A program made the position numbers and the translations under genes. A stretch of 64,000 nucleotides of DNA from positions 460 to 64,459 of the forward strand of contig JAFGEC010000512.1 of NCBI GenBank assembly GCA_016931775.1, given 5' to 3'. Under the pieces are notes generated by a model. The model was not told where the DNA came from, made no database searches, and saw only the letters and a program-made list of their open reading frames with translations. The DNA is from Candidatus Zhuqueibacterota bacterium (GTDB taxonomy: Bacteria > Zhuqueibacterota > Zhuqueibacteria > Residuimicrobiales > JAFGEC01). Shown piece after piece: positions 13,429-58,176 of the stretch; position 1 is the stretch's first letter, and every line of letters begins with the position of its first letter.

Positions 13429-13571
13429 TTCGGCACTTTTTGCGAAAAACAGTGAATTTTTATGGATTTAGCAAAAAAATATATTGACTTCTATTGTAAA
13501 ATTTACTAATTATAAGTATCAATAAAATTATATCCTTTTGTTAATAAAAACTGCAGAAAGGGGCAAAAGTT

Positions 13572-14771
13572 ATGAAAAGGTTGATCTTGTTCTCGTATAT
13601 CGCCCTGATATTGGTTATACTCATAGGGAATAATCTTTATGCAGCTGTAGATATACGGATGAGATTCGTAAGCAGTGTACCCAACACACCTGTGGTCGGT
13701 CAGGAAACCCTGACCATGTACGTACAGGCAAAGAGTGTCGGCTCTCCTGCTGTTGCTCATGAAATCAGCTACTTTCAATATGCATTTAAATTTGGTGAAG
13801 ATTTGTGGAATGCTTTGCCGGGAATAACGGATGCAGAAAAATACGCAAACGTTACTATTCAGCATACTTTTCTGCGTCCATCCACCGTTTACACGCATAC
13901 AGTTACCGAAATGCTGTATAGAATTTGGCGTATTCGATATACACTTGTGACCGGCCAGACGCCGGTCGCTATCCCATCGGACCGCTGGATTCGAATTTCC
14001 AAAGTGACCGTCGTTTTTAATATTCAGGAGAATGTGAGGGACAATATCTTTTGGCCGAATACACCGGTGTTTAATGTTCTGGATGCCGAGGATCCGCCCA
14101 ACGATGTAACCGGTGCGAAGCAGGAACAATTGCTGGATATTTCCCTGCCGGTCGAGATGGCTATGTTTCAGGCCCTTTTGGAGCAGCAAAACGGCAGGAA
14201 TGTGGCGCACCTGCAATGGCGTACGGCGAGTGAAACAGACTGTGCGGGTTTTTACCTGGAAAGATGCGATGCCGGTGAATTCGGTGAATTCCGCCAAATC
14301 AGCGGTTTTATCGACGGCCAGGGCACCACAACCGAAGCGACGGATTATGAATTTTTGGACGATCGAAATATAAGTTTTACGGAAAATCCCGATGAAAATA
14401 GCGGAATATGGTATCAAATTGTCCAAAAGGATCTTGACGGTATCGAAGAAGTGTTCGGCCCGTTTCCCATCACCAAGGCACCGCCGCTACCGCAGGCCTT
14501 TTTGCTGGACCAAAATTTTCCCAATCCGTTTAATCCGATAACCTTGATCCCCTATGCGCTGCCGGAAGAGGCGAACGTAAAGGTGGAAATTTATAACCTT
14601 CTGGGACGTAAAGTCAAAACGGTTGTCGATGCCCGTCAGGAAGCCGGTGAACATACCGCTGTGTGGAACGGACTAAATGAGAGCGGAACATCTATGGGTT
14701 CCGGCGTTTATTTTTACAAGCTCACGGCCGGAAACACGACATTGACGAAAAAGATGACGCTGTTGAGATAA
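13572..14771 (+). CDS. Secreted hypothetical protein with a T9SS C-terminal sorting domain
   Basis: N-terminal signal peptide. The C-terminal 80 aa (FPNPFNPITLIPY...VEIYNLLGRKV...GVYFYKLTAG...) match the Por/T9SS C-terminal domain. Confidence 0.75.
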   Translation: MKRLILFSYIALILVILIGNNLYAAVDIRMRFVSSVPNTPVVGQETLTMYVQAKSVGSPAVAHEISYFQYAFKFGEDLWNALPGITDAEKYANVTIQHTFLRPSTVYTHTVTEMLYRIWRIRYTLVTGQTPVAIPSDRWIRISKVTVVFNIQENVRDNIFWPNTPVFNVLDAEDPPNDVTGAKQEQLLDISLPVEMAMFQALLEQQNGRNVAHLQWRTASETDCAGFYLERCDAGEFGEFRQISGFIDGQGTTTEATDYEFLDDRNISFTENPDENSGIWYQIVQKDLDGIEEVFGPFPITKAPPLPQAFLLDQNFPNPFNPITLIPYALPEEANVKVEIYNLLGRKVKTVVDARQEAGEHTAVWNGLNESGTSMGSGVYFYKLTAGNTTLTKKMTLLR

Positions 14772-14806
14772 AATTTTGTAAAGTAATTTTTATATATTTT
14801 AATTTT

Positions 14807-14835
14807 GGGCCCCCTGTCATCAGGGGGCTTTTTTT
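14807..14835 (+). terminator. Rho-independent terminator
   Basis: GCCCCCTG-tcat-CAGGGGGC followed by TTTTTTT, 35 nt after the stop. Confidence 0.7.
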
Positions 14836-15089
14836 GTTGCAGCCGTTTGATAAAGAATCTGAAATGGTGCGTGGAAACCCGATTCGCCGACGCTGATGTT
14901 TGAATATTGACGGGAATTGGACAGCATAATTTCAACCGTCCCGCTGGGATGGCACACGATTTTTTACTCAAACCCGGTGACAAATCACCGGGCTATTGCC
15001 GGGTACTCCTGACGGGGTAAAGAAAATTATTTTTGAATACTTTGAGCTCATCGAGAGTGAACGGGATAAATTTTATAGGAGGTCTAGAT

Positions 15090-15158
15090 ATGAAAAAATT
15101 ACATCATATCAAAAAAATAAAATTCACAGCAGACTATTTTATTTGTTACCTATTCTGA
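15090..15158 (+). other. Candidate small ORF (22 codons, MKKLHHIKKIKFTADYFICYLF) with a strong RBS
   Basis: AGGAGG 7 nt upstream of the ATG. The peptide has a cationic N-terminus and a hydrophobic C-terminus. It is below the length cutoff of the ORF track. Confidence 0.2.
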
Positions 15159-15242
15159 ATTTTTAATATCAGACGGCCACCCCAATACCCATAATTTGAA
15201 AAACAGTCAAACCTAGACCGCCAGTAGAAATTCCACCTATAT

Positions 15243-15581
15243 CTATTCCTCCATCCTGAAAACAATCAATAAAAACACCACAAAATCAGCCATAAAATGT
15301 ATCACAACCGGAATGAGGATTCCCTTTGTACGCTGCACCAGCCAGCCCATCATAACGCCGAATAAAAATGTGAGGAATAATCCAGCTAAACCGATAGGAA
15401 ATCCCGCCTGATAATGTAAAAAACCAAACCAGATGGCCTGTAAAATATTCGCAGCTATTAAACCAATTTCCCTCGAAAAGTAGGTCAATAGAACAGCCCG
15501 GAAAAGAACTTCATACTCGGCGTTAATGGATTTAAATCCAATTTGAAAATAAAAAATGACAAGAGGCAAGACGGCCATCAT
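15243..15581 (-). CDS. CPBP-family (CAAX/Abi-like) intramembrane metalloprotease, short form
   Basis: EYEVLFR (EExxxR-like), FGFLHY (FxxxH) and HFMAD motifs in a polytopic membrane protein. The internal start at MMAVL avoids a 166-nt overlap with the upstream methyltransferase. Confidence 0.55.
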   Translation of the reverse strand: MMAVLPLVIFYFQIGFKSINAEYEVLFRAVLLTYFSREIGLIAANILQAIWFGFLHYQAGFPIGLAGLFLTFLFGVMMGWLVQRTKGILIPVVIHFMADFVVFLLIVFRMEE

Positions 15582-15610
15582 GGCAAAATTCAAAATATGT
15601 TGAACAGTTT

Positions 15611-16234
15611 TTATTTGTATCCTGTGATACAAATAAAATCCCGGTATTGATCTTGTTCCCGTATCATTTTGATGTCTCGAAAACCGGCATGGATTAAAAA
15701 CGACCGGCCCTCTGTTTCTTTGAATGTTTTTATCCCGTACTGAGTGAACGGTTTGTTCTGCAAATCTTTTTCGCAAGTAAACGTCAAAACAAGCCTGCCG
15801 TTATTTTCCAGTACGCTGTAAATTTCTGCAATGCCCTGTTGAGGATCGTTCCAATAAAATATGGAATTGACCGAACAGACCTTGTTAAAATGCCTGTCGG
15901 GATAGGGTAGATTCTCCGCTCTGCCGCATGTAATATCGACTTGACCGGCCCTGATGGCACGCCGCCATCGTTTTCTGCCGTTTTTTATCATCACGGGGGA
16001 AATGTCGATACCGGCGGCAAATCCGGCTTTTACCTGTGGTATAATCCGGTCGAGTAAATACCCCCCGCCAAAGCCGATATCGAGGACGCGGTCGTCCACT
16101 CCTAACTGTAGTTGAGACAATGTCAAATTGTTCAATGCGGCGTTTCGCTTGTTCCACAATCGGCCGATAATAAACCGGCCAACGAAACCATGGGGACAGC
16201 GCAGTTGATTTGCTAGATATTTTTGAATTTTCAT
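15611..16234 (-). CDS. Class I SAM-dependent methyltransferase
   Basis: VLDIGFGGGYL glycine-rich SAM motif and a Methyltransf_11-like layout. Confidence 0.8.
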   Translation of the reverse strand: MKIQKYLANQLRCPHGFVGRFIIGRLWNKRNAALNNLTLSQLQLGVDDRVLDIGFGGGYLLDRIIPQVKAGFAAGIDISPVMIKNGRKRWRRAIRAGQVDITCGRAENLPYPDRHFNKVCSVNSIFYWNDPQQGIAEIYSVLENNGRLVLTFTCEKDLQNKPFTQYGIKTFKETEGRSFLIHAGFRDIKMIREQDQYRDFICITGYK

Positions 16235-16308
16235 TTCTTCCTGTCCGGATTAGAAATTAAACGCAAGAAGTGTTCCCTTTTAGCTCATTTTGTGATTCCC
16301 ATTTGATA

Positions 16309-19300
16309 CTATTTCAAAACAACCATCTTTTTCACACATGAATAATTTTTCATGACAATTTTATACAAATATACACCGGATGCAAGTGTACTCGCATTAA
16401 AGGTATACGAATACATTCCGGCCTCATGTTCCGAATCGATAAAATTGCCGACTTGACGACCACGGATGTCGTAAACTTTTAAAATAACGTGGCACGATTC
16501 TTTCACGCCGTATTTTATCGTCGTTTTAGGATTAAATGGATTGGGAAAATTTTGATCGAGTGAAAAACTCATCGGCCTTAACGGTTCGCTATGTTTTAAT
16601 CCGGTTTCTGGGCTGATATGTACAAGAGCCGATCCCTTCAAGCGACTCAACGTATCCTCGACGGTTATCTGAAAATATCCCGTATCGCTTCCTGCGGTAA
16701 ATAATCCGTTACGTCCGATGGTCCCGCCAGTTGCTGACCATTTTGCATAAACAGCGACGTCAGCGCCCGAGGAATCAAATCCCTGGGCGGTAAACTGTAA
16801 CGCACTGTAGGGCGTCATAACCGAGGAATCGGGCGTAACCGATATTTTTACCAGTCCGGGCAGGATACAAATAAAAGCGCTGTCCCGGACATGAGTGGCC
16901 GGATTTAACGCAAAAACATAAAAATATCCGGCGATGCTTCCGGCTGTAAATAGACCGGTGCTGTTTATTTCCCCCCCCCGTCGCAGACCATATGACATCA
17001 ATGTCCAGCGGCATACCCAGTGAGTCGTATCCCGTAGCGCTGAAAGGCACAGACATCCCTGTGCGAATTCGGGCCGTGTCGGGGGAAATCGTAATTGACG
17101 CCAATGTTGAATGATACACCATGACCGTTACAGAATCGACTGCAGATTGGGATGGATTGCTCCGGGAAACCGCCTTTATTTTTATTTTTGAATGGGCGCC
17201 TGCCGTTATACCGTACGGGATCGTGCAGATAATGAACGTATCGGCTCCCACACTGTCCTGCAAAGTAACTGAAAAATGCGTGGATTGTCCAAGCCAGCCT
17301 GATGAATCGGCAGATATTTCCACATCCAATACGTCATCCGGATTCGTCCAGTTTTGAAAAGCGCAGATGACGGAATCTTGTTGACCGGCAGCGATAAAGC
17401 TGGTGTCATTTTGGGCAAAAACCGCCACACTGACAGGGATCGAACGCCAATTGCTAAACATGACGTTGCCGTTGATACCGTCTCCTGACTGCGGTCCTGC
17501 AGCATCTCCCCACCAGTTATTCCAGGCGGCTATTGGGAATGTGGTATCCAGATTATTCAATCCGAATCCGTTGTTGTCAAAAATGTTGTTAGAATACACG
17601 ATTGGATTTGAACCGTTCCGGCAGCTGATTCCGTCTCCGACATCGTGATGGATTTGGTTGTAGCAGATTTCCGCAACGGCATTTTCCAGGTGTATACCTG
17701 AGGATGGCGATTGGCCCCCCTCAATATTATTGTTGCTGATAGTGATTCTGGCAGAATAGGTAATCACCGGGCCGGTTCCGGGACTGTTTTCGACCGATAC
17801 GTTTCTGTTGTTGCCTATTACTGTGTTGTTAAATACGTTTATTTTTTTACACATCACCATATCTAGACCTTGATATTGATTGTATAACAACTTGTTTGCA
17901 TAAATTTCACCTTCGGAACATGAAACCAATGATATCCCGGCTCCGAAATTATTTACAATCCGGTTATCGTGTAGTTTAAAGCCGCCCAGTTTTACACCGT
18001 CGATACCCGATCCTCCGTTATTAAGAATTTTATTTTCAGATATATTCATTTCGGCGGCTTCTTTTACGGAAATACCCTCTAATTCATTACTCGTGATTTC
18101 ATTTGAAGTGACGACGGCTTTGCTTGATTTTGTAAAAAAACAAATTCCCTCCCATTTATTGGAATTTATTTTGTTTTTGCGTATAGAGGTTTGGTTTGAG
18201 TTCTCAAGAACAACAACGCCGTAAGCATTGTTATCATATATTTCATTGTTTTCGACGGTATTTTCATGTGAATTTTCTTTGATCGACAAACCGGAACTTT
18301 GATTTGTGTGAATTCTGTTGCTGCGTATATTGTTTTTCTGGCTGGACTCGATCAATACGAGTCCGACGTCCTTGTTATTGGCTAAATCATTATCGTAAAT
18401 AATATTGTCACTGGATTGTTGTAAAAACATTCCAAAAAGATCATTCCCGGAAATGAGGTTTTCATTCACACCGGTCTTCCGGCATTCAAAGAGTGCAATA
18501 CCCTGGCCTATATTATGTGCCACATTCGGATTGCCCTGTTTATTGGTGGTGCAGGAAGTGATTTGATTCTTTTCGATTGTTGAACGCTGGCTTTTCGCCA
18601 GAATGATACCGGGACCCTGATTGCCGGAAATTTGGTTATCGCTGATGATATGTTCGTCACCGGTATCGATAAAAATTGCCCCTCCCGTGCTGCCGGAAAT
18701 TTCATTCGACCTGATTGTGTGTTTTTGCGGATTCGAGCCTAAAAGTTCTGCAATTAAAATTCCGATTCCGGCGTTGTTGATAATCTTATTGCCCTGGATT
18801 TCGTTTTCAACGGCAAGACTTTCAATTCGTATTCCGCCGATCTGGTCAATGGACACTTTTAAAAATCCATTTTCACGAATGTCGTTATCACGAATCTTGT
18901 TTCTTGAACCCGCCGAAATAAGGATGGCGTGGGTGGCATTTCCTGTTATGCTATTTTCGTATATTTCGTTATCATCCTGGTTTAGAATGATGCCGTCAAC
19001 GTTTTGGGTGATTTCGTTTTTATAAAGTTTGTTTTTGTCTGCATTGTCCAGCCAAATACCCGTATGAAAAAATTTAATTCGATTTTCCTGAAAGACATTT
19101 TCATTGGCAGCATTTAAAAGAACGCCGTCGCTGTGGTCAAGGATAAGGGCGTTATTGGGTCCGGTGATGGTGTTTTTTTCGATTTCATTTTCGTGCGAAT
19201 TTTTTATTCTGATACCTGCAGTCGCACCATCATTCTCCGGGCTTGTAGCATAAAAGTCGCTGATGATGTTTTCGATTATTTTATTTGACTTACACAAATC

Positions 19301-20722
19301 ATCAACATAAATGCCATATTGAAAAAATTTAATAGTATTTTTATTCAGTGTGTTTTCATCACATATACTGTGTAGGATGATACCGATACTTTCTTCTTTT
19401 TTTGTGCCCTCAATAATATTGTTCTCAAATTTAGAAAAATTTGACGCTTTTTGCAGTTGAATGCCCCGGTATGCAATAGAATTGAGTTCATTGTTTTTGA
19501 ATTCGATTTTTTCGGCTGCTTCAAAAAAAGCCCCCAAATAACTCAGGGTGATTTTATTCCCGGTTATTTTGTGTTCCAAACCTCTCTTGACAAACAGGCC
19601 GTAATTGTTATTGATGATAATATTGTTTTCCACATTGCACTTGGTGAGATAAGGTGTTTCGGGTTTGGCCACGATGGCAATTCCGGCGATCTCCTTAGCG
19701 ACAGCACCGGTAATTGTAAAACCATTCAAAGTACTATTGTCTTTTTCGAACACTACCACATTATCGCTGCTGTTGTTAGCCATAACGGTGGTTACTTCCG
19801 GTCCATTAAAGGATAACAGTTTTAATTCTTTTTTCAGAACGACATTTTCTTTATACTGTCCGGGACACACCTTGATGGTGTGGCCATCCTGGGTTTCCGT
19901 ATCATCGATGGCTGTTTGAATGGAATCAAATACTGCTTGTGCCAGAATATTGTGCACACATCCTACGACAGTCGGTCCGCCTATCACCCTTTTAAACTTT
20001 GGCTGATCGGACGGCATTTGAACCCCCGGTTCATAAGTTGCAGGTTTGGCCTCAATGAGCGCCATGTTTGTAAAGGCATAAAATTCGCCGAGGTATGTGT
20101 CGTCTTCATTACGGTTATAAACATTAAAATCATAGGTAACGGTAAGCAAAACAGACGTACTGGCATAAATTGTCAGATCAACCGGAAATACTAAATTATC
20201 GCCATCCGATAAGAACACGTTTTGACTGAGAATTGTACCGTTCTCGCCGCCTAAATGAAGTTTCGCCAGTTTGACTCCCTCTTTTTCATCCCCTGTCCCC
20301 TCTGTATAAAAAACAATCGAATTGACGTTCCAGTCGTCTGCCTCACTGGCGGAGAGACGGATTTGCGTGATAAGGGTATTGGTATTTTCATCTTCTTCCT
20401 GAGGCGGGCATACCGGTTGGTAATCCGGATTATCAGGCCCGGCGGATAGGACAAGAATAGGGCCAAACAGTCCGACCGCCTCATCACAATTGTCTGGAGC
20501 GTTTCCATTTACCCGGACTTTTGTTCGAGTTGCCGTTCCACCGGCTGCACCCTGCCATTCAATAAACGCCCAACCGTCTTCGGCCTTCGCTTCCAGCTCG
20601 ACCTCGCCTCCGCAATCGACCGCGACGTAAGGTGGATTGACGGTTCCCGCTGTGGAGACAGGGGCGACACGAGTGGTCAAACAACACTGAGGTGACGCTA
20701 TTTTAACGATCCCGATCATCAA
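16309..20722 (-). pseudogene. Giant beta-helix / Ig(Big_2)-repeat adhesin with a T9SS C-terminal domain, split into two ORFs (16775..20722 and 16309..17001) by a +1 frameshift in a poly-G tract. Either phase-variable or disrupted.
   Basis: The upstream ORF has dozens of NxIxxN parallel beta-helix turns and ends ...DVIWSATGGG. The downstream ORF starts ...GGEINSTGLFTAG, repeats the Big_2 motif WSATGGTIGRNGLFTAGSDTGYF in-frame, and ends with a T9SS CTD. Removing one G of 9 fuses them into a roughly 1,470-aa protein. Confidence 0.7.
16971..16979. repeat. Homopolymeric tract C9 (G9 on the coding strand) at the frameshift point
   Basis: Directly visible: tttatttCCCCCCCCCgtcgc. Confidence 0.9.
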
Positions 20723-20773
20723 ATCATACAGCAGGGCAATAATATCAATGCTGCCCGCCTTGCTTGTTAATGT

Positions 20774-21730
20774 CTATATATAGCCGTCAGTTATGCGGTC
20801 TGACAACTCGGTCCAGGAAGCACCGCCGTTCTCCGTTTCAAGAATTGTTGTAAAAGACTGCCCAGCCTGTCCCTGAACTGCGATAAATCCATGCTTAGGT
20901 GTAAAAAAATTAATAGCGGTCACATTATTAAAAGAAGGGACGTTTTCAGACGTCCATGTATCTCCACCGTTATCCGTGAATAATAACAAAGCGTCGGCTT
21001 CTTGTTTACCTACAATCCATCCGGTGTCGGAATTGACAAAATAAAGATCGTTAAATCTGCCATTGGCGGCAGGATGGGATAACTTTGTCCAATTTATCCC
21101 GCTGTTCTTTGTTTGAAGAATATAGGGTGTGAGGTTCACATCATCGAATCCGAATGCCCAGCCGTAATTGTCATCAGCAAAGAACACCTTTTTGAACGTT
21201 CCATTTTGCTCTGGATGATTTATTTTTGACCAGGTTTCACCATCGGTGGTGCGAAGGATCAGAGTTTTTTGTGCATCCGAATTAAATCCGACGGCATAGC
21301 CGACCTGAGGACTGGTAAAAACCACATCAACCAATCCACCATTGTTAACGGGAGAAATCTGAGGCAGCCAACTGTTACCACCGTCCATCGTTTTCAAAAT
21401 GAGGGGAGTTGTCGTGCTGCCATAGTTCACGCCGACAGCATAACCTGTGTCGTGGGCTGTAAAGTGTATTCCCATGAATGTACCATCAATATCTAACGAT
21501 TGTACACGCCAGTTTTGTCCAGCATTTCCAGTAGACATAATGACAGCCCGGTTAACGGAAGCGTCTGTACCTGCGACCCAACCTGAATCCTTGTTCAGAA
21601 AATAAAAATCTTGAACTTGGGCGCTATTCAACGGTAGCGGATAAAGTGTCCACGGTAGTGTCTGGGCAAATGGTGATTGTGTTGCTATAAAAAATCCGGC
21701 GAAAAAAAGTATAAACTGTCGAGTCTTCAT
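20774..21730 (-). CDS. Secreted BNR/Asp-box repeat beta-propeller protein (Ycf48/sialidase-like fold)
   Basis: Signal peptide MKTRQFILFFAGFFIATQSPFAQ after an AAGGAGGG RBS. There are five SxDxGxTW-like repeats (GGNSW, GGDTW, GGASW, SGINW, GQNW). Confidence 0.65.
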   Translation of the reverse strand: MKTRQFILFFAGFFIATQSPFAQTLPWTLYPLPLNSAQVQDFYFLNKDSGWVAGTDASVNRAVIMSTGNAGQNWRVQSLDIDGTFMGIHFTAHDTGYAVGVNYGSTTTPLILKTMDGGNSWLPQISPVNNGGLVDVVFTSPQVGYAVGFNSDAQKTLILRTTDGETWSKINHPEQNGTFKKVFFADDNYGWAFGFDDVNLTPYILQTKNSGINWTKLSHPAANGRFNDLYFVNSDTGWIVGKQEADALLLFTDNGGDTWTSENVPSFNNVTAINFFTPKHGFIAVQGQAGQSFTTILETENGGASWTELSDRITDGYI

Positions 21731-22055
21731 ATGTAGTCCCTCCTTGTACTCATTCTGTTTATCCACTTTGCGGTTTAAAATTCTGCCATTTTCATTATTT
21801 ATTGCCACAAATGCTAATTTAGTAAAAGTAACAGGTGTTTTCCAAATCATAGATGCCCAATTCATAAAGTCCTTCATTGCCGATAGAATAGTCTGAAAAA
21901 ATGATGCCGGAACGAAAGAAATAGTATTTGACACGGATTTCCACTGATATAACTCGGAAAGAAGAATTCAAATACGGTGTTAATTGTTTTTGTTATATCA
22001 TTTTTTTTAAATTGAAGAGTCCGGCTCGGTAAAAGATAACTTGTTAAAATGTAAT

Positions 22056-22991
22056 TTACTGACGTTCAACATAGGTTTGGTATATTTCGCCCAGATCAAT
22101 CGTAGATGCGTCACCTCGATGAATAACCACAGCATATTTTAAAATGACTGGTTTTATTGTTGGTATTACCACCGGTTCACGTCCGGGAAACATGGCGTTT
22201 TGCATGCTTTTGGATAATTGACCACCCCGTATGATCCAGTTTTGCGCTAGGCCGGGATTGTCGGGGTGGGTAAAAATTGTTATACCGCATTTTTTTTCGA
22301 CAAAAGTACCGGAAAAATCCATCCAAGGGCCCGCCTGAATGGCGTTATTTTTTGGCGTTATGTGTTTATTTTGCGAGACAAAAATGAGGTCATCCGGAAC
22401 GGGTGTTCTTACTGAAAAGCCTCCGTAACCTTTTTCGTCTTTTGAACCGCCGATTTTTACGCTGTCTTCCATTGCCTGCAACTCAATCTGGAATGTCAAA
22501 ATTCTATAATCCTGTTGCGTCTTGTAAATCGTTATCAGAGTGTTTTCCCTGATGAACGGCTTTATATTTTTCCCGTCATCGAGCCAGAGGGGCGACCGCC
22601 ACATGACGTCTGCTGCCAGTGTTACGGATTGCGAATCGGGCCGTGCAATTTTTACTGTTTCCACACCATAACTTATGTTCCTGCATTCCCAGCTGTCGCC
22701 TAAGCTTGAGTCACCGATTATCACCTGGTGCCAGGCCCAAAATACACCCCGATGGTGGGGATGATCCGGCGGAAAATCCTCGGTTATTATTTCACCATCC
22801 AGGCTGTACAAGGGATGGATGTAATTTGAGCGTGGATATTTACCGTCCAATGATTTGGTTTGTGTCTGGTAAAACATGATGTCTTTACCGTTCTGACGAA
22901 CCCAATATCCATCCTCATGCTTGTCAACCGTGAGCTGACAAAATCCGGGTTGCACGCATGTGAAGAGAATAAAAAGATAAATCGGTTTCAT
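22056..22991 (-). CDS. Secreted hypothetical protein, possibly PmoA-like (DUF6807) family
   Basis: Signal peptide. A DHPHHRGVFWAWH motif is remembered from PmoA-family/DUF6807 proteins. The family assignment is not verified. Confidence 0.5.
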   Translation of the reverse strand: MKPIYLFILFTCVQPGFCQLTVDKHEDGYWVRQNGKDIMFYQTQTKSLDGKYPRSNYIHPLYSLDGEIITEDFPPDHPHHRGVFWAWHQVIIGDSSLGDSWECRNISYGVETVKIARPDSQSVTLAADVMWRSPLWLDDGKNIKPFIRENTLITIYKTQQDYRILTFQIELQAMEDSVKIGGSKDEKGYGGFSVRTPVPDDLIFVSQNKHITPKNNAIQAGPWMDFSGTFVEKKCGITIFTHPDNPGLAQNWIIRGGQLSKSMQNAMFPGREPVVIPTIKPVILKYAVVIHRGDASTIDLGEIYQTYVERQ

Positions 22992-23011
22992 ATTAAAAAA
23001 TTTCCCATGTT

Positions 23012-23827
23012 TTACTTTTGGCTAACAACAGAGTTCATACCGACAACAATGTAAATACTGCCGATGAAAAACAAGATTGCACCGTAAATCCAAAGATATC
23101 CTTTTAAAAAAATCAGAAAACCAGCGATGAAAATGAGCGAACTGCAGCCAATGGACCATTTTGTGCGTCTATTCCAACGTTTTATTGATTCATCCAGCAT
23201 TTTTTGCGCCTCGGTTATATCATATCGCTCTTTGGTCATTTTCGCCAGTATGCTATCCGCGGACTCGCCACTTTTTAGCATGCGTGCCGCACCGGCAGTC
23301 CATTGACGACGGCTTCGATATCCCGGTTTTAATTCAAAACAGTCGGAATGAATTTTTTTATGAGTACTGTCATCCTTATTAAGGTTATTTAGAACCTGGC
23401 CGGCAATTTCACGTGCACAGGATCTGATGCATCGTTTCATAATTGATTTAAAGTTACTAAAAATATATGGACTAATTAACAGCAATAACAAGTCGTTAAA
23501 TATCGACCTGCTTTTCCCTGCAATCGCGTAAAGATCAGCTACAGGACGGCCTTTAATTATCAACGTTCCCTCTACTTCGAGAACAACTCTGCCATCAGGT
23601 ATAAAAATCATGCGAAGAAATTCATCGCCTTTATCTATACGAACATACCGGCCTCTTATTATAATCGGGGCTCCATCTCCTTTCTTGAACACCATCAACC
23701 CCTTCTTGTGAAGCTGGTTCCTCAACTCATTTTGGAATTCTGTATCCACTTCTTCTGCATGGGGAAAATTTATATCAGCTCCGCCCAAATCCCACTCAAC
23801 AATACACGGCCATTTTTTGTATTCCAT
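23012..23827 (-). CDS. Hypothetical protein with a soluble beta-rich N-terminal domain and a C-terminal 2-TM hairpin
   Basis: ORF with coding-like composition and two C-terminal hydrophobic helices. No recognised family. Confidence 0.5.
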   Translation of the reverse strand: MEYKKWPCIVEWDLGGADINFPHAEEVDTEFQNELRNQLHKKGLMVFKKGDGAPIIIRGRYVRIDKGDEFLRMIFIPDGRVVLEVEGTLIIKGRPVADLYAIAGKSRSIFNDLLLLLISPYIFSNFKSIMKRCIRSCAREIAGQVLNNLNKDDSTHKKIHSDCFELKPGYRSRRQWTAGAARMLKSGESADSILAKMTKERYDITEAQKMLDESIKRWNRRTKWSIGCSSLIFIAGFLIFLKGYLWIYGAILFFIGSIYIVVGMNSVVSQK

Positions 23828-23916
23828 TGAATTTTTTTCTCCTTAACAGATTGAAGTCAAGTTTGTCAGCCTTAAATATATAAAAAAAATAAAATAATGC
23901 AAGTTATTCGGTGTGA

Positions 23917-24819
23917 TCATTTTTCAGTTTTAGCCGGTAACAAAATCCGGAATCCCAATGTATAATGATAATCAAATGCCTGTTCGTAACGCCGGAAGGC
24001 ACAACGGCACCGTTGCAGGGGCTCCTGGTAACTGCCGTTTCGAAAGACATGCTCCACGAATATATTTAACAATAAAAATTTGGGTCCCGTTATGACAGGA
24101 TCAATCACACCCTCGCGTTCAGAGGGTTCCCGGTAACGATCCAGACACCATTCGGACACATTACCGTGCATATCGTACAATCCCCAGCCGTTCGGCTGTT
24201 TGAGTCCCACTGCCTTGAGTTTATTGTCGGAATTATCTCCCGCCCACCATATCCGTTCTTGCAATATCTTATAACAGCTGTCGCTTAGCACGGCCTGATT
24301 CAAGCAGTCGCAGAGTTCCCCACCGGCACGGCAGGCATATTCCCATTCTGCCTCCGATGGCAGACGAAAATCCCTTCCCGTCATTTTATTTAACCGGTTC
24401 ATAAACCACTGGCATTCTATCCAACTGACCTTGTTCACCGGATTGTTCTCACCCTTGTATTTGGAGTGGTTCGGCTTGCCCATGACAGCCTGCCATTGTG
24501 CCTGCGTGGTTTCAAAACGAGCAAGAAAAAAAGGCTGACTGATACTGACCTTATGCAGCGGCCATTCGTTATCCGACCTGTTACGATTTTCAAGGGCGGA
24601 ACCCATACTGAATTCTCCTGAGGGAATGAGAACCATCTCCAATTTTTGTGCGGAGGCCGGCAATTCCGCCAGCTCTATAGTTAAAACATCACCGGGGAGG
24701 TATTGATCATCCTTTTTTCTAAAATCACTTCTCCCCACATGATTGGGTTCGACACATTGTGACAACACAAAAAGAATCACAAAGGAAAAACCGAAAACAA
24801 ATGTTAAAATTTTTGTCAT
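23917..24819 (-). CDS. FGE-sulfatase (SUMF1/EgtB/PvdO-type) domain protein with an N-terminal signal/anchor
   Basis: Signature ...WEYACRAGG...NGWGLYDMHGNVSEWC... of the formylglycine-generating-enzyme fold. The start is placed at the ATG at 24819 (RBS GGAGAT) rather than the GTG at 24846. Confidence 0.8.
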   Translation of the reverse strand: MTKILTFVFGFSFVILFVLSQCVEPNHVGRSDFRKKDDQYLPGDVLTIELAELPASAQKLEMVLIPSGEFSMGSALENRNRSDNEWPLHKVSISQPFFLARFETTQAQWQAVMGKPNHSKYKGENNPVNKVSWIECQWFMNRLNKMTGRDFRLPSEAEWEYACRAGGELCDCLNQAVLSDSCYKILQERIWWAGDNSDNKLKAVGLKQPNGWGLYDMHGNVSEWCLDRYREPSEREGVIDPVITGPKFLLLNIFVEHVFRNGSYQEPLQRCRCAFRRYEQAFDYHYTLGFRILLPAKTEK

Positions 24820-24835
24820 TGTATTATCTCCAATT

Positions 24836-25726
24836 TTAATTTTCACGACTTGTATAAAGGATAGCGGCCGAAAAACTCAACAAGACCAAAAATAGAAAAA
24901 AAGGAAACCAAAGATATCCCAGCCGCAGGCTTTTTTCGAAATAGCTAAACAAGAATAACAGGCTCATAGCCGGCACTGTACATATCAGGGAAAAAAGACT
25001 TGCCCGGCAGACATCCAGAAACTGTTTTTCGTCATACCATTCCCGGATCCGCTCTTTACGTTTGAGTAAAAGCCAGTAAAAAACCACAAGTCCGTAGGGC
25101 AAGGCGATCAACACGCCGAAAAACGGGATGACGAATTTGAGCATGCGAACGGGATATACAAAAAAAGCAAGCAGGGAAAATAAAAGTCCGAGTGCCCCGC
25201 ACACCACACCGATGTATTGTGCCACCTTGAATATGACCTCATCCTTGAAAACATGTTCCGTTTGCACCTGAAGCCGGTTTGATCGTAAAAGGCCGAACGC
25301 CGTGATCAGAGCCAGAATATAGAAAATCAGATGGCAGAATTGGGAAATATACAAGGCCAGCCATTCGCCGCTGGTCTCCAATCCGTATTTATATTCCTTA
25401 CCGATATCGTTTAGCGCCGCCCAGTCACCGCCCAGCGCAAGAAAGGATAAAATTCCCAAACATAAAGTGGCCATACCAAAAAATGTGGCTTTTTTCGATA
25501 TCTGAAAGCGCAAGAACATGCTGACAAACGCACATATATGAAAAACAACCGCCAGGAGAATGCCAAGATAAACACACATCAGCAGTGTTTCACCCGATCC
25601 CAACGCCTGCAGATTCGCCATTTTAGGCTGTACCGTCAAAAAAACATAAAAATTGCATCCCAATAGGCTTAAGCATAAAATTCCCAGGATCACGGACAAG
25701 TAGGCGGATATTTTTTTATTTTTCAT
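24836..25726 (-). CDS. Polytopic inner-membrane protein (about 8 TM) of unknown function
   Basis: Eight hydrophobic segments and positive-inside loops. It is co-oriented with, and 17 nt downstream of, the XRE regulator. Confidence 0.6.
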   Translation of the reverse strand: MKNKKISAYLSVILGILCLSLLGCNFYVFLTVQPKMANLQALGSGETLLMCVYLGILLAVVFHICAFVSMFLRFQISKKATFFGMATLCLGILSFLALGGDWAALNDIGKEYKYGLETSGEWLALYISQFCHLIFYILALITAFGLLRSNRLQVQTEHVFKDEVIFKVAQYIGVVCGALGLLFSLLAFFVYPVRMLKFVIPFFGVLIALPYGLVVFYWLLLKRKERIREWYDEKQFLDVCRASLFSLICTVPAMSLLFLFSYFEKSLRLGYLWFPFFLFLVLLSFSAAILYTSREN

Positions 25727-25743
25727 AATGACCTCCTGAACTC

Positions 25744-25950
25744 TTATTCATCTTGCAGATAAAAGATTTCTTCCACAGTTTTATTGAAAAACCGGGCCAG
25801 TTTAAGTGCCAGCAGAGTTGAAGGCACAAATTTGCCCTTTTCGATGGAGTGAATGGTCAATCTGGTCACCCCGATTTCATTGGCCAGCGCCTGCTGCGAT
25901 ATTTCATTCGCTTCAAAACGGCAGCGCCTGAGATGATTTCCCAATTTCAA
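25744..25950 (-). CDS. XRE-family helix-turn-helix transcriptional regulator (68 aa); TTG start
   Basis: MKLGNHLRRCRFEANEISQQALANEIGVTRLTIHSIEKGK is a canonical Cro/C1 HTH. An AGGAGG RBS lies 8 nt before the TTG, so the annotated GTG at 25959 is rejected. Confidence 0.75.
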   Translation of the reverse strand: MKLGNHLRRCRFEANEISQQALANEIGVTRLTIHSIEKGKFVPSTLLALKLARFFNKTVEEIFYLQDE

Positions 25951-28745: not shown

Positions 28746-29858
28746 TTAGATGGGTAGTTGGCTACGAACGTAATCCGCCCGTATCCGATCTCGTTCTGTT
28801 GAATTCATCTGTTTTCGAAAAATCTGCTGTAAATGTGCGGGCTGTGTTGTAATAATCAAAAAATTGAACAACCGATAGTCCACCGGATCAATTAATTCCA
28901 AACTCGAACCGAGTCTTAAATCTGATAACAACTGTAATAATTCTGTCGACTGTATCAACTTGGCTGCTTTAACGATTGCCCGTGCTCGAACAACGCGGTC
29001 CTCTATTTGAGCGCGGTGCTCAACACTTGCATTTTCCCTTTCCTCCCTTTCCTTTTCCACCAGATTCTGGGCCACCAAGTGCATCCGTTTTATGATGTTT
29101 TTCTCGACACGACCTAAGGTCAATTGATTGGATACCTGATAGATATCACCTTGAACTCGAGATCCTTCACCATAAAATCCACGAATAGCAACTTCACTCG
29201 GTCCCATTTCTTCAAATATCTGCTTTATTTTTCCTGCGATTGTCAATGCCGGGAGATGGACAAAAACCGATGCACGTAGCCCTGTGCCCACATTAGTGGG
29301 ACATGCCGTTAAATAGCCGAATTGTTCTGAAAATGAATAATCCAAAATTCCACTCAGTTTATTATCAATTGTCCGGATAACCTCCCAGGCGTTATTTAAA
29401 TTTAACGACGGTGCCATTGATTGTATACGAATGTGATCTTCCTCATTGATCATGAGGCTCACTTTTTCTCCCGGGGCAATAACCACACCGCGGGGAATTG
29501 TATCGGCTGCAAAACCAGGACTGATGAGCCGTCGTTCTAATAAAAAATTTTTTTCACTTTTCGTACAAGTGTTCAAGTTTAGTGACACATAGCCATAAAA
29601 CTCCGACACCTGCCCAACTGCGTCTAATACTGTTTTTAATATACTTACAAAGCTTTTTGGCGTTGCCTGCGATCGATATTTAAATCCTTTCAAATTTCGT
29701 GCCAATCTTATTCGACTGGAAATAATAATGTCATTTTCTTTGCCTTCACCTTCCAGCCAGGGAATGGACTGGCGGCACATAGCGTCCAGAAGGGAGGAGG
29801 TATCGTTGTAATCTCCCAGCCAGCAGGACATTTTTTTTTCAGTTGATAATTGCGTCAT
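28746..29858 (-). CDS. mcsB: Protein-arginine kinase McsB (ATP:guanido phosphotransferase family)
   Basis: ...SSRIRLARNLKGFKYR... and a phosphagen-kinase-like catalytic core, immediately upstream of clpC. Confidence 0.85.
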   Translation of the reverse strand: MTQLSTEKKMSCWLGDYNDTSSLLDAMCRQSIPWLEGEGKENDIIISSRIRLARNLKGFKYRSQATPKSFVSILKTVLDAVGQVSEFYGYVSLNLNTCTKSEKNFLLERRLISPGFAADTIPRGVVIAPGEKVSLMINEEDHIRIQSMAPSLNLNNAWEVIRTIDNKLSGILDYSFSEQFGYLTACPTNVGTGLRASVFVHLPALTIAGKIKQIFEEMGPSEVAIRGFYGEGSRVQGDIYQVSNQLTLGRVEKNIIKRMHLVAQNLVEKEREERENASVEHRAQIEDRVVRARAIVKAAKLIQSTELLQLLSDLRLGSSLELIDPVDYRLFNFLIITTQPAHLQQIFRKQMNSTERDRIRADYVRSQLPI

Positions 29859-32508: not shown

Positions 32509-33741
32509 CTATTCCGTCCGTATTGCATTGATGGGATCCATCTGCGCTGCTTTGGAGGCCGGGTAAACACTGGCCACCAGTGTGATAACCATGGACACCG
32601 CCGAGATGAGGAGAACGTCGCTCCATCGTACCATAATCGGAAGCCAGCCGATAATATAAACATCGGCCGGCAGTGATAAAAAGTGGTATTCCCCTTGTAC
32701 CCAGCAAAGGATATATCCCACCAGCAATCCCGTTGCCGTTCCAATAAAACCGACAAACATACCGTCGTATACGAAAATTCGCCGGATGCTTTTTGATGTT
32801 GCGCCCAGTGATTTTAAAATTCCGATATCCCGCGTTTTTTCCATAGAGACCATGATCAGGGTGCTGACGATATTAAAAGCCGCCACCATAATAATCAAGC
32901 TAAGGATGATAAAGCCTGCCCATTTCTGAATTTTATACCATGCGAACAAATTGGCATTCAAATCCGCCCATGTCAGAGCCCGATAGGGATACCCTAGACT
33001 GTCCGTAATTTGGGCGGCAAAGGTTTCCGACCTGTCGATATCATCGAGCTTAATCTCGATGCCGGTAATTTTTTCATGCATATTGAATAACAACTGAGCG
33101 GCTTCGAGAGATATAAAGGACGTTGCGTCATCAAACTCGAACAATCCGGTACTGAATATTGCGGTTACTCGGAAGCGCATTTTCTGCGGCATTTGGCCGA
33201 AGCGGGTAATACCGGCCAAGCTGGCCTGTATGACTTCATCTCCCACCTTAATCTCCAGGCGGCGCGCCAGTTCATCTCCCACCATAATACCGTAAATGAT
33301 ATATGGATCATTTTGCTGACGGTCGAGTGCAAGATCGCCGTCCGTGATGAGATCCTCCACAGGCAAAAGGTGCCGTCCCGCATCCTGATCGATTCCTTTA
33401 ATTTGTATGGCCGTGGAACTAAAATCCGAGATGATGAGTCCCTTGCCTAGAATATAAGGGCTGACTGCATCGACATGCGGTTTGGATTTGAGCATTTCGA
33501 GTTTGTCTTTATATTGATCAAAACCGCGTTCATGAAAAGTACCCATTTTTACATGACCGTAAATGCCAATGAGTCGGGAGCGGACTTCATCTTCATAGCC
33601 GTTCATGACGGATAAAATAATTAACAGCGCTGCCACTCCAATCACCACTCCAGCGATGGCAATAAAAGTGATCAACGAAAGCAGGCCGGATTTTTTTTTC
33701 GATCCGACGTACCGTTTGGCGATAAACAGTTCAAAGGTCAT
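32509..33741 (-). CDS. lolC: LolC/LolE-family lipoprotein-release permease (FtsX fold), second copy
   Basis: Same architecture as the previous gene. The start is set at the internal MTFELFIAKRY, which is the conserved N-terminus, avoiding overlap with lysS. Confidence 0.75.
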   Translation of the reverse strand: MTFELFIAKRYVGSKKKSGLLSLITFIAIAGVVIGVAALLIILSVMNGYEDEVRSRLIGIYGHVKMGTFHERGFDQYKDKLEMLKSKPHVDAVSPYILGKGLIISDFSSTAIQIKGIDQDAGRHLLPVEDLITDGDLALDRQQNDPYIIYGIMVGDELARRLEIKVGDEVIQASLAGITRFGQMPQKMRFRVTAIFSTGLFEFDDATSFISLEAAQLLFNMHEKITGIEIKLDDIDRSETFAAQITDSLGYPYRALTWADLNANLFAWYKIQKWAGFIILSLIIMVAAFNIVSTLIMVSMEKTRDIGILKSLGATSKSIRRIFVYDGMFVGFIGTATGLLVGYILCWVQGEYHFLSLPADVYIIGWLPIMVRWSDVLLISAVSMVITLVASVYPASKAAQMDPINAIRTE

Positions 33742-37263: not shown

Positions 37264-40200
37264 TTACCGCAAAAACGTTACTTTTACAGCGCGATCAAAT
37301 CTTTCACTTTGCATTCTAATAAAATACAAACCGGAGGCAACCACAGTCCCGGCGTCATCCGATCCATTCCAAATGATTTCATGCCTTCCCCGAAGTTTAT
37401 TACCATCAAAGAGGGTGCGAACTTTTCTGCCATGAATATCAAAAACCTCAAGGCGAACAGACGCAGATTTCGGCAGAGCAAAGTTTATGACAGTTTCCGG
37501 ATTAAACGGATTGGGGAATGCGGGATAGAGTTCAAAGTTATCCGGCACCGAGTAAAAATTATTGTCAACAAAAGCCGCTGTGATGAGACTGACGTTATCC
37601 AGCTCTGCTTCACAAATTACACCGTCGGCGTGCGACGTAACGGGCATACCGAAATAAATTTCTTCATCCATAGTGATAGTCTGCACGCCGATCCTTCTCC
37701 ATGTGGTTCCATTTGGGGATTCCCAGGCAGAGATCTTGTCCCCCTCTCTCGTAAGACGTACCCAATACGGTGCACTGGTTTGTGTTCCCGCAGTATGAAC
37801 AGATGTTCCGCCAACCGTGGTACGGCGTTGAAAAGCAATGCCGTTTTGCGATGACAGGATCATCATGGCATGCTGTGATCCTGGTGTTAGTGAATTGCGA
37901 ATCATTACACCTGCCTTGGACCATGGATCGCTGTTTTCAACTGAAACGACCCTGGCCGTAATTTCGGCATCTCCCTTGATTTTCTGGTACACAAAATGAA
38001 AGGCATCGGCATTGTCCCAAATGTCGGCTCCTGAACCCCGAAGGACAAAACGATCCTGTCGCATTCCGGCAGTGCCGGCCAATAACGGCTGCCCGATATC
38101 CGTGCTTTGCCAGGGTGAGGCTAGAGGTTGGAGCTCGTTTCCAATAAATGTCAGGGACACATTATCAATATAAACTTCTCCCGGTTGCCCGCCGCAGTTA
38201 AAAACCACACGCGCAACGACATCGGTAGGGCGGGTCATTTCAAACTCGTATTTAAAATGTTTGAGCCGGCTGGTTAGCGCTGTAATCCCTATCCGGCCGT
38301 AATTGGTCTGTCTGGAATCGCCGGAGATAACTTTTGCTTCAATGGCGCGCGTCTCAGATGCATAGGCATCAAATTCAAAAGTATAATAATTATCCCTCAT
38401 GATAATGATATTATCCTGCCGTAACTGAACGTGCTCTGCATCTGACCCGCCATTGGTAATATTAATTTGATAGTATCCATCTGTATTTATCTGTCCTGTG
38501 GCACTTGCATCGCCGCTTTCTTCCAACTCCCAAAGATCCGGTGTATCAAAGCCGCCATTTTTAATGGCATTTTCACCGGGTTCCATTGTCGCAACAAGGG
38601 TATTTTCAATGCTGGAAAATTCGCCTTCGTGGCCGTTCTTATAGACTGCGGTTACACCAAAATAATACTGTGTTCCATTATTCAGGGTTCGAGCGTCAAT
38701 ATCGTACCAGGTTTGGTCCGTATCAGCCAACGGAGTGAGATTATCGGAATTTGTACCCACGTAAATTCGGTAAAAATTTACGTTGGGATCGCCGAATTTA
38801 TTAAAAATCAAGCGAACCACGGAACCGAGATTCTCGAGAATGAGGTAAGGATAGGGCATTTTACCTTCCCATTCATAACGGCGGCAACGGTAGGTTTCGA
38901 TGGCGACCACGAACATTTCCCAAACCACCTCGCCATCAGCCGTTACCTCGACCGCACGAATACGACCACCGGGAAATTCAACGAGCGTATTCCCGTTCGG
39001 CAACCGCTGTGCACTGCCCATCCAGCCTGAATACCAGTCGGGATCATGACGATACTCCCACACCTTTTCAGCTGTCATGTTACCCAGGTCCAGTTTATAT
39101 TCTACAGCCCTGGAAATTTGCGGACTCCGGTCTCGCCCGTTGTCAAACAGGAGGTAATGGTTCGGTTTGCCTACAACAGGATTTGCATCGTGCTGATAAG
39201 AAAATTTCAGGTTATCATTAATAAACTCAAAATCACTGTGCCGGCCGCCGAGTGTCCACATGACCTCTCCGGTCTTGCGATTTATTTTCATAATGGTGTG
39301 AAATTCGCGGGGAGAAATGATATAATTATCATCATAATCGATGGCAATGGAATTCATATGCACAAAATCGGTATAAGTGTCACGGATATTTACATAGGTA
39401 TCGCGTATATCCAAAAAATCCCAGGCGCGCCACTCAAAAATGACATTTTGATCCTTGTCCATTTCCTGGAAATGATGCCCCTCAACCGTCGCGTTTGGCT
39501 GCCCACCGGTAACCACATTGTTCATATTGATTCGGACCTGATCGCGTACCACCTGCAGGATGTTTCCGTTTTCAAGGATTTTAAATTCATGGTCATCTTC
39601 GTAATAACCATGCCCGGCATAAACGGTGTCGATTTCGACAAAATTTTGATCTAAAACGATATGCTTGTCTTCATAACAGTGAAAGGCAAGAACCCCCGTT
39701 GGATGAGCGGTGAAATCGCCGGTACGGGGAATACTCGTATAGCGCCGGTAGAAATAGGGCGTACCGTCGTTATCACAGATAACAATGTAATTGCCATATC
39801 CGCTGGCCAGGGTGGTTGTCGCGTAAAAAATGCGTCCCGGTGCGGTCTCGCCGTATTGATTTGTCGTGATCATGGGGAAATCACTCGGTACAGCAATGCC
39901 GTTGATCAATCGCACGGGGTATACATCCTGTTTTATTGGTGTTGGCGGTTCGTTGACCGCCGATTTGCCGAGCCAATCCAGTTCGTTCCCCGAAGTTTTT
40001 AGCGTCTGAAATGTATACTGAAAATTTTCGGCGCCTACCTGGGAGAGATGGATGGAAACGCTTATATTCTCGCCATATTTCAAGTTCTGGTTTGGTTTAA
40101 AGATAATTGTCCGGTTATCTCCGGCAAAAAATGTCGTTCCCGTGATTACCGACGTCTCTCCTGTTACACTGATCAGATTTGAAAGATTGGTAATTTTGTT

Positions 40201-40353
40201 GTTGTATGATTCCTCCAGTTTCAAAATCACAGTGGTTTTCACAGGCAGAAACTTGCTGTCCGGTAATGGAAAAATGTAGTCGATGATGGGATGGTATGGT
40301 CCAGATATCACACAACTAGACAAGAACAGAACAAAAGCGGCGATTTTTTTCAT
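37264..40353 (-). CDS. Large secreted multi-domain protein (1,029 aa) with a T9SS C-terminal domain. The central beta-propeller resembles arylsulfotransferase (ASST) and the C-terminal region a ConA/LamG-like jelly roll.
   Basis: Lipoprotein-like signal (LSSC). The T9SS CTD is FPNPFNPETVINF...VFDIHGRKV...GLYFIRM. The ASST assignment comes from remembered family resemblance only. Confidence 0.7.
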   Translation of the reverse strand: MKKIAAFVLFLSSCVISGPYHPIIDYIFPLPDSKFLPVKTTVILKLEESYNNKITNLSNLISVTGETSVITGTTFFAGDNRTIIFKPNQNLKYGENISVSIHLSQVGAENFQYTFQTLKTSGNELDWLGKSAVNEPPTPIKQDVYPVRLINGIAVPSDFPMITTNQYGETAPGRIFYATTTLASGYGNYIVICDNDGTPYFYRRYTSIPRTGDFTAHPTGVLAFHCYEDKHIVLDQNFVEIDTVYAGHGYYEDDHEFKILENGNILQVVRDQVRINMNNVVTGGQPNATVEGHHFQEMDKDQNVIFEWRAWDFLDIRDTYVNIRDTYTDFVHMNSIAIDYDDNYIISPREFHTIMKINRKTGEVMWTLGGRHSDFEFINDNLKFSYQHDANPVVGKPNHYLLFDNGRDRSPQISRAVEYKLDLGNMTAEKVWEYRHDPDWYSGWMGSAQRLPNGNTLVEFPGGRIRAVEVTADGEVVWEMFVVAIETYRCRRYEWEGKMPYPYLILENLGSVVRLIFNKFGDPNVNFYRIYVGTNSDNLTPLADTDQTWYDIDARTLNNGTQYYFGVTAVYKNGHEGEFSSIENTLVATMEPGENAIKNGGFDTPDLWELEESGDASATGQINTDGYYQINITNGGSDAEHVQLRQDNIIIMRDNYYTFEFDAYASETRAIEAKVISGDSRQTNYGRIGITALTSRLKHFKYEFEMTRPTDVVARVVFNCGGQPGEVYIDNVSLTFIGNELQPLASPWQSTDIGQPLLAGTAGMRQDRFVLRGSGADIWDNADAFHFVYQKIKGDAEITARVVSVENSDPWSKAGVMIRNSLTPGSQHAMMILSSQNGIAFQRRTTVGGTSVHTAGTQTSAPYWVRLTREGDKISAWESPNGTTWRRIGVQTITMDEEIYFGMPVTSHADGVICEAELDNVSLITAAFVDNNFYSVPDNFELYPAFPNPFNPETVINFALPKSASVRLEVFDIHGRKVRTLFDGNKLRGRHEIIWNGSDDAGTVVASGLYFIRMQSERFDRAVKVTFLR

Positions 40354-43059: not shown

Positions 43060-43700
43060 TAAATCTTCGCCCCCTTTTCCCTGTTGCACCTCAGACAAAG
43101 CACCTGCAGATTTTGCACTGATGTGGCTCCACCCTGCGAAATGGGTATAATATGATCGAACTGCAAGTTTTCCTTTGAGCCGCAATTGACACAGCATCCA
43201 CCATCCCGCCGCCATACTTCACTGCGGATGGCCTCCGGTATCGGTTTGCGGCTGGTCTGTTCATAAGGTAATGGAGCGGGCGGAGTTTTGAAAACCAGGT
43301 TCGGTTCAATCGGCGGTGAGTTGGGAATACTGTAGTATTGTTTCGTCATCTCATGAATATCATGAAATATTTCTAAAACGATATCTGTACCGGGTGCGCC
43401 GGCAGGGGCATGCATTTTTTTATCGCAATAGACACACCGGTAATATACCGATCTGGCATTGGGGCTGATTTCCAATAGCTGCATGGAGAACTCGTGGCAT
43501 CTGGAGCATGGCTGAACCAGATACCGCTGTTCGACCAGTGAAATGAGATAATCCGATGCATCCTGTATGTTTTTAAGGAGGAACTTTCGTCTCCGGTAGC
43601 GACTCGTGTAGACGTAGATAAGAACCACAAAAAACAAAACAATTGAGCTTGATATGATAATCCACTCCACCGCACCATCCTCAATTAAGCTAAATAACAA
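43059..43700 (-). CDS. Membrane-anchored HNH endonuclease (N-terminal TM helix, CxxC...CxxC zinc ribbon, C-terminal HNH)
   Basis: TM segment IIISSSIVLFFVVLIYVY, then CSRCH...CVYCDKK, then the HNH motif CCVNCGS...LQFDHIIPISQGG...NLQVLCLRCNREKG. Confidence 0.75.
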   Translation of the reverse strand: MLFSLIEDGAVEWIIISSSIVLFFVVLIYVYTSRYRRRKFLLKNIQDASDYLISLVEQRYLVQPCSRCHEFSMQLLEISPNARSVYYRCVYCDKKMHAPAGAPGTDIVLEIFHDIHEMTKQYYSIPNSPPIEPNLVFKTPPAPLPYEQTSRKPIPEAIRSEVWRRDGGCCVNCGSKENLQFDHIIPISQGGATSVQNLQVLCLRCNREKGAKI

Positions 43701-51327: not shown

Positions 51328-51523
51328 GGTTTCTCCACAAATGTGATTTGTAAAGATTAAAAAAGTTGTCATTCAGCAATTTTAGGTTTTGGTAATATAC
51401 GGAGAAATTATACAAAATAAATTAAAGATTTTTATTGCGGACTTTCAGACAGTAATTTTATTTTCACTGACGATGATTTTTTTTGATGAAATTTCTTGTT
51501 TTGGTTTTAAATGATTTGATTTT

Positions 51524-58072: not shown

Positions 58073-58176
58073 AATATATTGTTTTTACTATCTTTGACTA
58101 CTAAAAAATTTTTTTTTAAACGAGTTAAATACAATATAAACAGGAGAATTAAATATTCGATCTCTTTTGTGAGTTC

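Follow-up and report, generated by a model that had tools for sequence, protein, structure and literature searches.

We analysed a minus-strand locus in a 64,000-nucleotide stretch of the 65,063-nucleotide contig JAFGEC010000512.1 from an uncultured candidate division KSB1 bacterium (the window, to which all coordinates refer), where the coding sequence for a large right-handed beta-helix protein of the type IX secretion system (T9SS) is distributed over three open reading frames (ORFs). As judged from the translated sequence, the three ORFs make up one ancestral gene of about 1,806 codons once repaired, which now carries two disabling lesions: read-through of the whole locus meets one internal stop and one frameshift. 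The repaired gene would encode, in this order, a signal peptide, a Ycf48/BNR-like propeller, an InlB-B-repeat-like domain, a NosD/CASH right-handed beta-helix, two Big_2-like immunoglobulin (Ig) repeats and a T9SS C-terminal sorting domain. The best other homologue, P0002, is a 1,635-residue hypothetical protein (JPMHGGIA_00393) from a Saprospiraceae metagenome-assembled genome (MAG). The gene and all its parts lie on the minus strand, as follows.

16309-21730, minus strand: putative ancestral gene, from read-through translation and colinearity with P0002.
21738-21745, minus strand: Shine-Dalgarno-like AAGGAGGG, 7 nucleotides upstream of the ATG at 21730, by direct sequence reading.
21659-21730, minus strand: predicted Sec signal peptide MKTRQFILFFAGFFIATQSPFAQT, from translation and from its alignment to the signal region at the N-terminus of P0002.
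20777-21658, minus strand: Ycf48/BNR-like beta-propeller (Pfam PSII_BNR PF14870, E=1.7e-20; exact match to MBN2000266.1).
20774-20776, minus strand: in-frame TAG, lesion 1, dividing the signal peptide and propeller from the remainder of the protein.
20723-20773, minus strand: 17 codons that lead from the TAG to the earliest possible start of the big ORF and retain homology to intact P0002.
17516-19933 (approximate boundaries), minus strand: right-handed parallel beta-helix, NosD/CASH-type (Pfam Beta_helix E=5.5e-74, NosD E=1.5e-63).
16855-17104, minus strand: Big_2-like Ig repeat 1, broken by the G9 frameshift and whole only with one G removed.
16971-16979, minus strand: G9 homopolymer (plus-strand C9), lesion 2, one G above the in-frame G8.
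16775-16970, minus strand: out-of-frame tail of the big ORF, about 64 codons and then TGA, with no homology to anything.
16606-16854, minus strand: Big_2-like Ig repeat 2, in the +1 frame, where WSATGG is encoded by TGG TCA GCA ACT GGC GGG, without a long G run.
16318-16548, minus strand: T9SS type-A C-terminal sorting domain (Por_Secre_tail, PF18962, E=1.6e-11), residues 152-228 of the 230-codon ORF.

At the downstream junction the minus strand reads GAT GTC ATA TGG TCT GCG ACG GGG GGG GGA AAT AAA, so that the big ORF (16775-20722, 1,315 codons) ends in ...DVIWSATGGG and then continues out of frame to the TGA. The overlapping ORF at 16309-17001 (230 codons) reads ...GGEINSTGLFTAGS... and holds the sole Por_Secre_tail match of the gene. 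Removal of one G yields WSATGGEINSTGLFTAGS, including W-S-A-T-G-G-E-I-N-S-T-G, and a continuous read of 1,470 codons from the TTG at 20722; in this in-frame G8 state the codons are ACG GGG GGG GAA (T-G-G-E). The repaired repeat 1, an 83-residue unit, matches repeat 2 of the same gene with 38% identity over 80 residues and no gaps (E=1e-19), whereas the out-of-frame tail gave no match to repeat 2. Furthermore, seven repeat units from this gene and from P0002, P0003 and L002 align over 83 columns with zero gaps, which identifies G8, and not G11, as the ancestral in-frame state. The coincidence of the G9 run with the frame junction between two halves of one homologous domain is not due to chance.

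The run stands out in the window, where it is the only G/C run of at least 7 bases (28 runs of 5, five of 6, none of 7 or 8 and one of 9), and it lies within coding sequence, longer than the roughly 7 bases or more looked for in a homopolymer inside an ORF. GGG is the rarest glycine codon (11%), and GGGGGG occurs in 0 of the 74 other Gly-Gly pairs. At the WSATGG-type motifs elsewhere, repeat 2 uses GGC GGG and the relatives use GGC GGC or GGA GGA; G runs do not exceed 3 bases at the homologous motifs of L002 and L082 or in repeat 2. Judging from these motifs, the tract appears to be specific to this lineage rather than a feature of the family. When the window was shuffled 100 times with its dinucleotides preserved, a G9 run also arose in 32 of the shuffles, and thus the existence of the tract in itself requires no selection.

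The next ORF upstream, 20774-21934, is in frame with the big ORF and separated from it by the single TAG; from this TAG to the TTG at 20722 there are 17 codons and no further stop. The real start of the upstream ORF is the ATG at 21730, which is preceded by a strong ribosome-binding site, AAGGAGGG. The signal peptide, called by eye from a basic n-region, a hydrophobic core and an A-x-A-like site, is encoded only here and is severed by the TAG, just as the sorting domain is severed by the frameshift. Across the TAG, the match to P0002 is gapless (DGYI-stop-TLTSKAGSIDIIALLYD versus DAYADKIQVVLGSITYYVLLSD), and this homology through the stop indicates that the 51-nucleotide 'intergenic' stretch is former coding sequence and not a true spacer. 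Junction-spanning peptides of a full-length product would be DGYI-x-TLTSK at the TAG site and WSATGGEINSTG. A scan for promoters and terminators returned nothing above shuffle expectation, and no terminator-like site was found between the TAG and the big ORF. A separate start of the big ORF, with a signal peptide or lipoprotein signal of its own, was rejected: MIGIVKIASPQCC, inspected by eye, has neither a lipobox nor a hydrophobic core, and its homologous counterpart in P0002 is internal. An alternative code in which TAG is a sense or pyrrolysine codon was likewise rejected, as TAG ends 9 of 43 ORFs in the window, including those of ClpC and another T9SS cargo. The genetic code here is standard and TAG is an ordinary stop.

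The repaired 1,806-residue translation is colinear with P0002 from the signal peptide to the C-terminal sorting domain, and a three-way alignment agrees. Two blastp high-scoring segment pairs carry this result, one covering query residues 6-1243 and thus spanning the TAG (residue 319), the other covering residues 895-1806 and spanning the frameshift (about residue 1586). Because each lesion is crossed by a single segment pair, the three ORFs are best described as fragments of one gene. P0002 has the identical domain order end to end at about 30-32% identity, and its precomputed Pfam matches are Sortilin-Vps10, Beta_helix, NosD and Por_Secre_tail. Unlike the KSB1 gene, it is intact, with no stop or frameshift, and its beta-helix is shorter; its WTSSCG and WTATGG motifs contain no G run. 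It is a distant homologue from another phylum and not an orthologue.

These results bear out most of the structural claims of the earlier note on this DNA, made from the sequence alone, and correct several of its figures. The note had placed a +1 frameshift within the G9 run at 16971-16979, splitting a beta-helix, Ig-like and T9SS-sorting protein, and direct reading agrees. Its 1,315-residue ORF ending in ...DVIWSATGGG is as described, except that the out-of-frame extension counts about 64 codons rather than 62. The 230-residue ORF in the +1 frame, said to carry the only T9SS sorting domain, indeed does so by the PF18962 match, and the proposed restoration of W-S-A-T-G-G-E-I-N-S-T-G and of whole tandem Ig repeats by eight G is corroborated by the gapless 38% match between the repeats. 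The size of about 1,470 residues holds for the read from the TTG at 20722 and falls short as the size of the gene, which comprises about 1,806 codons when the upstream ORF is included. Similarly, the note was right that no Sec signal stands at the first Met of the big ORF, and missed that the signal is encoded by the upstream ORF, which the TAG divides from the big ORF.

Searches for an intact or tract-length-variant copy returned none from about 15 billion proteins or from the contig collections. Specifically, neither a G8 or G10 variant nor a close orthologue was found in the protein collection, the JGI metagenome contigs or the GTDB species genomes, and an exact-flank scan of the JGI metagenomes with a variable tract gave 0 matches. 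The next-best protein is 32% identical, and protein-guided scans of genomes and metagenomes recovered distant relatives only, at no more than 40% identity. The comparison of tract lengths among related genomes that the earlier note had proposed thus found no close orthologue to compare, and the homologous motifs that were found lack a G run. The closest C-terminal relative, L002 (JAACEJ010000493.1; parts 22-396 and 440-2956), is a 3.7-kb scaffold with about 40% identity. It was binned as Actinomycetota, yet it carries a T9SS sorting domain and is probably mis-binned; its reading frame shifts near 396-440, between the B-repeat-like and beta-helix parts.

Both lesions were recovered in a second assembly. 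Contig L001 (11,166 nucleotides), which Logan assembled from SRR13394437, matches window positions 14742-25907 at 100% identity, with both the G9 and the TAG. This contig was reached through P0121, the Logan twin of P0001; an exact look-up of P0001 itself gave no record. The two assemblies probably derive from the same reads; no mention of SRR13394437 was found in the literature searched. Elsewhere in the window, the genes for ClpC, LysRS, ABC/FtsX transport and two T9SS cargos (1,029 and 1,518 codons) are uninterrupted, and the other checked ORFs are unbroken although the window contains 73 A/T runs of at least 7 bases, on which ground an error-prone long-read assembly was rejected. The overlapping ORF pairs inspected as possible split genes were also rejected: 15243-15776 and 15611-16234 are separate genes, for an Rce1-like protein and a methyltransferase, and the members of the pairs 29862-30410/30352-31065 and 40861-43215/43059-43700 have unrelated Pfam domains. 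It is unlikely that the G run reflects a systematic error, and very unlikely that the TAG, a substitution, is a sequencing error.

We consider it probable that the locus is a recently inactivated gene (pseudogene) for a large T9SS-secreted beta-helix protein of this uncultured KSB1 bacterium, and that slippage in the G8 run was one of two hits. The TAG at 20774-20776 would stop translation after the propeller, so that all downstream parts lose the signal peptide. Growth of the run by one base, from G8 to G9, would shift the frame, halving Ig repeat 1 and eliminating repeat 2 and the sorting domain altogether. Replication slippage is the route by which such a frameshift would be expected, the G8 run having presumably been the most slippage-prone site of the gene. 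With both lesions in place, the only exportable product would be the 318-residue fragment comprising the signal peptide and the propeller, and reversion of the tract alone would not be expected to bring back the secreted full-length protein. A pair of independent disabling mutations within a gene typically marks its inactivation, which favours a pseudogene, and homology to the intact P0002 runs colinearly through both points of disruption. All three pieces are still open and can be aligned with intact relatives; hence, the lesions look young. In these respects the locus resembles ordinary bacterial pseudogenes with a nonsense mutation and a homopolymer frameshift, being a large surface-protein gene that is colinear with an intact homologue and is disabled at more than one point, with one of the mutations lying in a homopolymer. 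It differs from them in being a single genome copy whose pieces are otherwise open, which points to very recent inactivation. The decay of the gene, offered in the earlier note as a fallback, is supported by the occurrence of the TAG and the frameshift in one gene. As a comparison case we take the 'distribution and decay' of Campylobacter autotransporter genes (PMC7168839).

Several points weigh against this interpretation. The linkage of the two lesions on the same haplotype and the uniform tract length rest on assembly consensus, and the two assemblies probably share their reads. The pieces show no further decay, and the searches found no orthologue above about 32-40% identity that could serve for an estimate of the ratio of nonsynonymous to synonymous substitutions (dN/dS). 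Moreover, surface-protein genes with a coding poly-G run are the very class in which true contingency loci occur.

The last point leads to slipped-strand phase variation, in which G8 and G9 would be states of a selected contingency tract that reversibly switches the C-terminal Ig and T9SS-sorting part of the protein on and off, with the TAG being secondary or derived from another strain merged into the assembly. The position of the G9 exactly at the frame junction and the restoration of a perfect domain by G8 are what such a switch would produce; the tract is the only G/C run of its class in the window and sits in the gene for a surface or secreted protein; and the GGG-GGG codon choice is unusual. 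Any run of G8-G9 is intrinsically hypermutable, as in Neisseria pgtA and M. tuberculosis glpK. The likeness to known poly-G contingency loci (Neisseria pgtA, Campylobacter poly-G genes, the 7C tract of M. tuberculosis glpK) extends to the 8-9 G within the coding sequence for a surface or secreted protein, and to the alternation between a complete and a truncated C-terminus on gain or loss of one base.

Nevertheless, we regard phase variation as unlikely. T9SS cargo must first pass Sec export, and type-A cargo (PF18962) combines an N-terminal Sec signal with a C-terminal sorting domain of about 75 residues. Here the C-terminal sorting domain is present, but the signal peptide is not on the same polypeptide, the two being on disconnected reading frames. 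Consequently, a return to G8 with the TAG in place would turn nothing on: no tract length yields an exported protein, or a complete functional ORF that could serve as the ON state, from this sequence, and the TAG, unlike the tract, cannot be reversed by slippage. In contrast to the known loci, the tract is conserved neither in homologues nor in the paralogous repeat, and the host is an uncultured environmental bacterium with two assemblies that both show G9. The frequency of G9 in the shuffles (32% of them, with matched composition), the lack of any length variant in the protein or contig collections, and the literature searched, which links no homopolymer phase variation with the T9SS, all argue in the same direction. 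The working on/off switch proposed in the earlier note is therefore not sustained, given a TAG that leaves no exportable ON state, an unconserved tract, its recurrence in shuffled sequence and the lack of variants. In the more specific form in which the tract is a genuine contingency tract on a T9SS cargo of a free-living KSB1 (FCB-group) bacterium and the TAG comes from a different co-assembled strain, phase variation appears distinctly unlikely.

A comparably low probability attaches to a homopolymer sequencing or assembly error, whereby the true genome would have G8, the C-terminal part would be in frame and the TAG would be the sole lesion. Long G runs are the hardest context for the indel accuracy of short reads, and both assemblies probably come from the one run SRR13394437. 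However, two different assemblers produced the identical G9, the other checked ORFs show no frameshift in spite of their many A/T runs, and the TAG is a substitution-type lesion outside any error-prone context, which makes a second real lesion plausible.

It is very improbable that the contig is a strain-mixture consensus in which the TAG and the G9 come from different sub-populations stitched together, with individual cells having one lesion or none. The source is a MAG and the 3.8 kb between the lesions exceed what short reads can link, but the Logan contig matches at 100% over 11 kb and is unbroken at both sites, each variant must at least form the dominant k-mer path, and no alternative allele was found in any searched collection. 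Least probable is recoding, in which transcriptional or +1 ribosomal slippage would bypass the frameshift and readthrough the TAG to give some full-length protein: although tRNA-Gly could re-pair perfectly on G9 once shifted by +1 and long homopolymers can make polymerases slip, the GGA AAT AAA after the run offers no rare codon or stop, the conserved slippery site and stimulatory element of programmed slippage are missing (the site is absent from homologues and no Rfam match was obtained), the TAG is an ordinary terminator here, the window yielded neither an Rfam element nor a tRNA that could act as a suppressor, or any other tRNA, and two separate events would be needed in one gene.

The pseudogene reading has a direct consequence for annotation. 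A single interrupted gene of about 1,806 codons is represented in GenBank by at least two separate and seemingly intact 'proteins', each only a part of its product: the propeller ORF, MBN2000266.1 ('hypothetical protein'), and the big ORF with the NCBI start, MBN2000265.1 ('right-handed parallel beta-helix repeat-containing protein'). More generally, phase variation should be inferred from a poly-G frameshift in the gene for a surface protein only after the remainder of that gene has been shown to be intact. Should heterogeneity of the tract prove real, the range of contingency loci would come to include T9SS cargo and a candidate phylum from the environment; and a contingency tract here, with the TAG from another strain, would be a first example of homopolymer phase variation of a T9SS cargo outside host-associated pathogens.

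The earlier note had called the product an adhesin; the set of domains suggests that the ancestral product was a secreted or surface protein that is carbohydrate-active or binds carbohydrates. The beta-helix is roughly 800 residues long, and the only PDB sequence matches of its ORF are weak ones to AlgG-type mannuronan (alginate) C5-epimerase (E=5.5e-7), in keeping with the CASH class of carbohydrate-binding or -modifying beta-helices. For the Ig repeats, Pfam alone gave no Big_2 match even at E<=10; the profile of the seven repeat sequences searched against PDB matched Leptospira LigA/LigB in their Ig-like (Big_2) domains at E=1.8e-7, and also '2mog Bacterial Ig-like domain, group 2' at E=0.056. 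Modelled with AlphaFold from a single sequence, the repaired C-terminus reached a predicted local distance difference test (pLDDT) of 37.8, too low for use except in the sorting domain.

Among the large T9SS cargo genes of the region, the broken gene is the exception. An intact cargo at 37264-40353 (minus strand; 1,029 residues) is arylsulfotransferase-like and has CBM_4_9 and the C-terminal sorting domain, and another at 46816-51372 (minus strand; 1,518 residues) is an M28 peptidase with CARDB and the C-terminal sorting domain. Directly upstream of the broken gene, the segment 22056-25726 (minus strand) encodes a DUF6807 protein, an unannotated 271-residue protein, an FGE-sulfatase (SUMF1-like) protein and a 296-residue protein; together with the arylsulfotransferase-like cargo, these genes hint at a theme of sulfated substrates.

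Further observations concern the rest of the window. The longest A/T homopolymers are the T9 runs at 29831-29839, 33691-33699 and 58109-58117, which lie at gene ends or between genes; none of them splits an ORF. The ORF at 40861-43215 (minus strand, 784 codons) has a weak Big_1 match, and its start is overlapped by about 150 nucleotides by the 213-codon ORF at 43059-43700 (minus strand), which ends in an HNH endonuclease domain. Finally, ORFs of 306 codons at 13506-14426 (minus strand) and 399 codons at 13572-14771 (plus strand) overlap almost completely on opposite strands, and presumably only one of them is a real gene.

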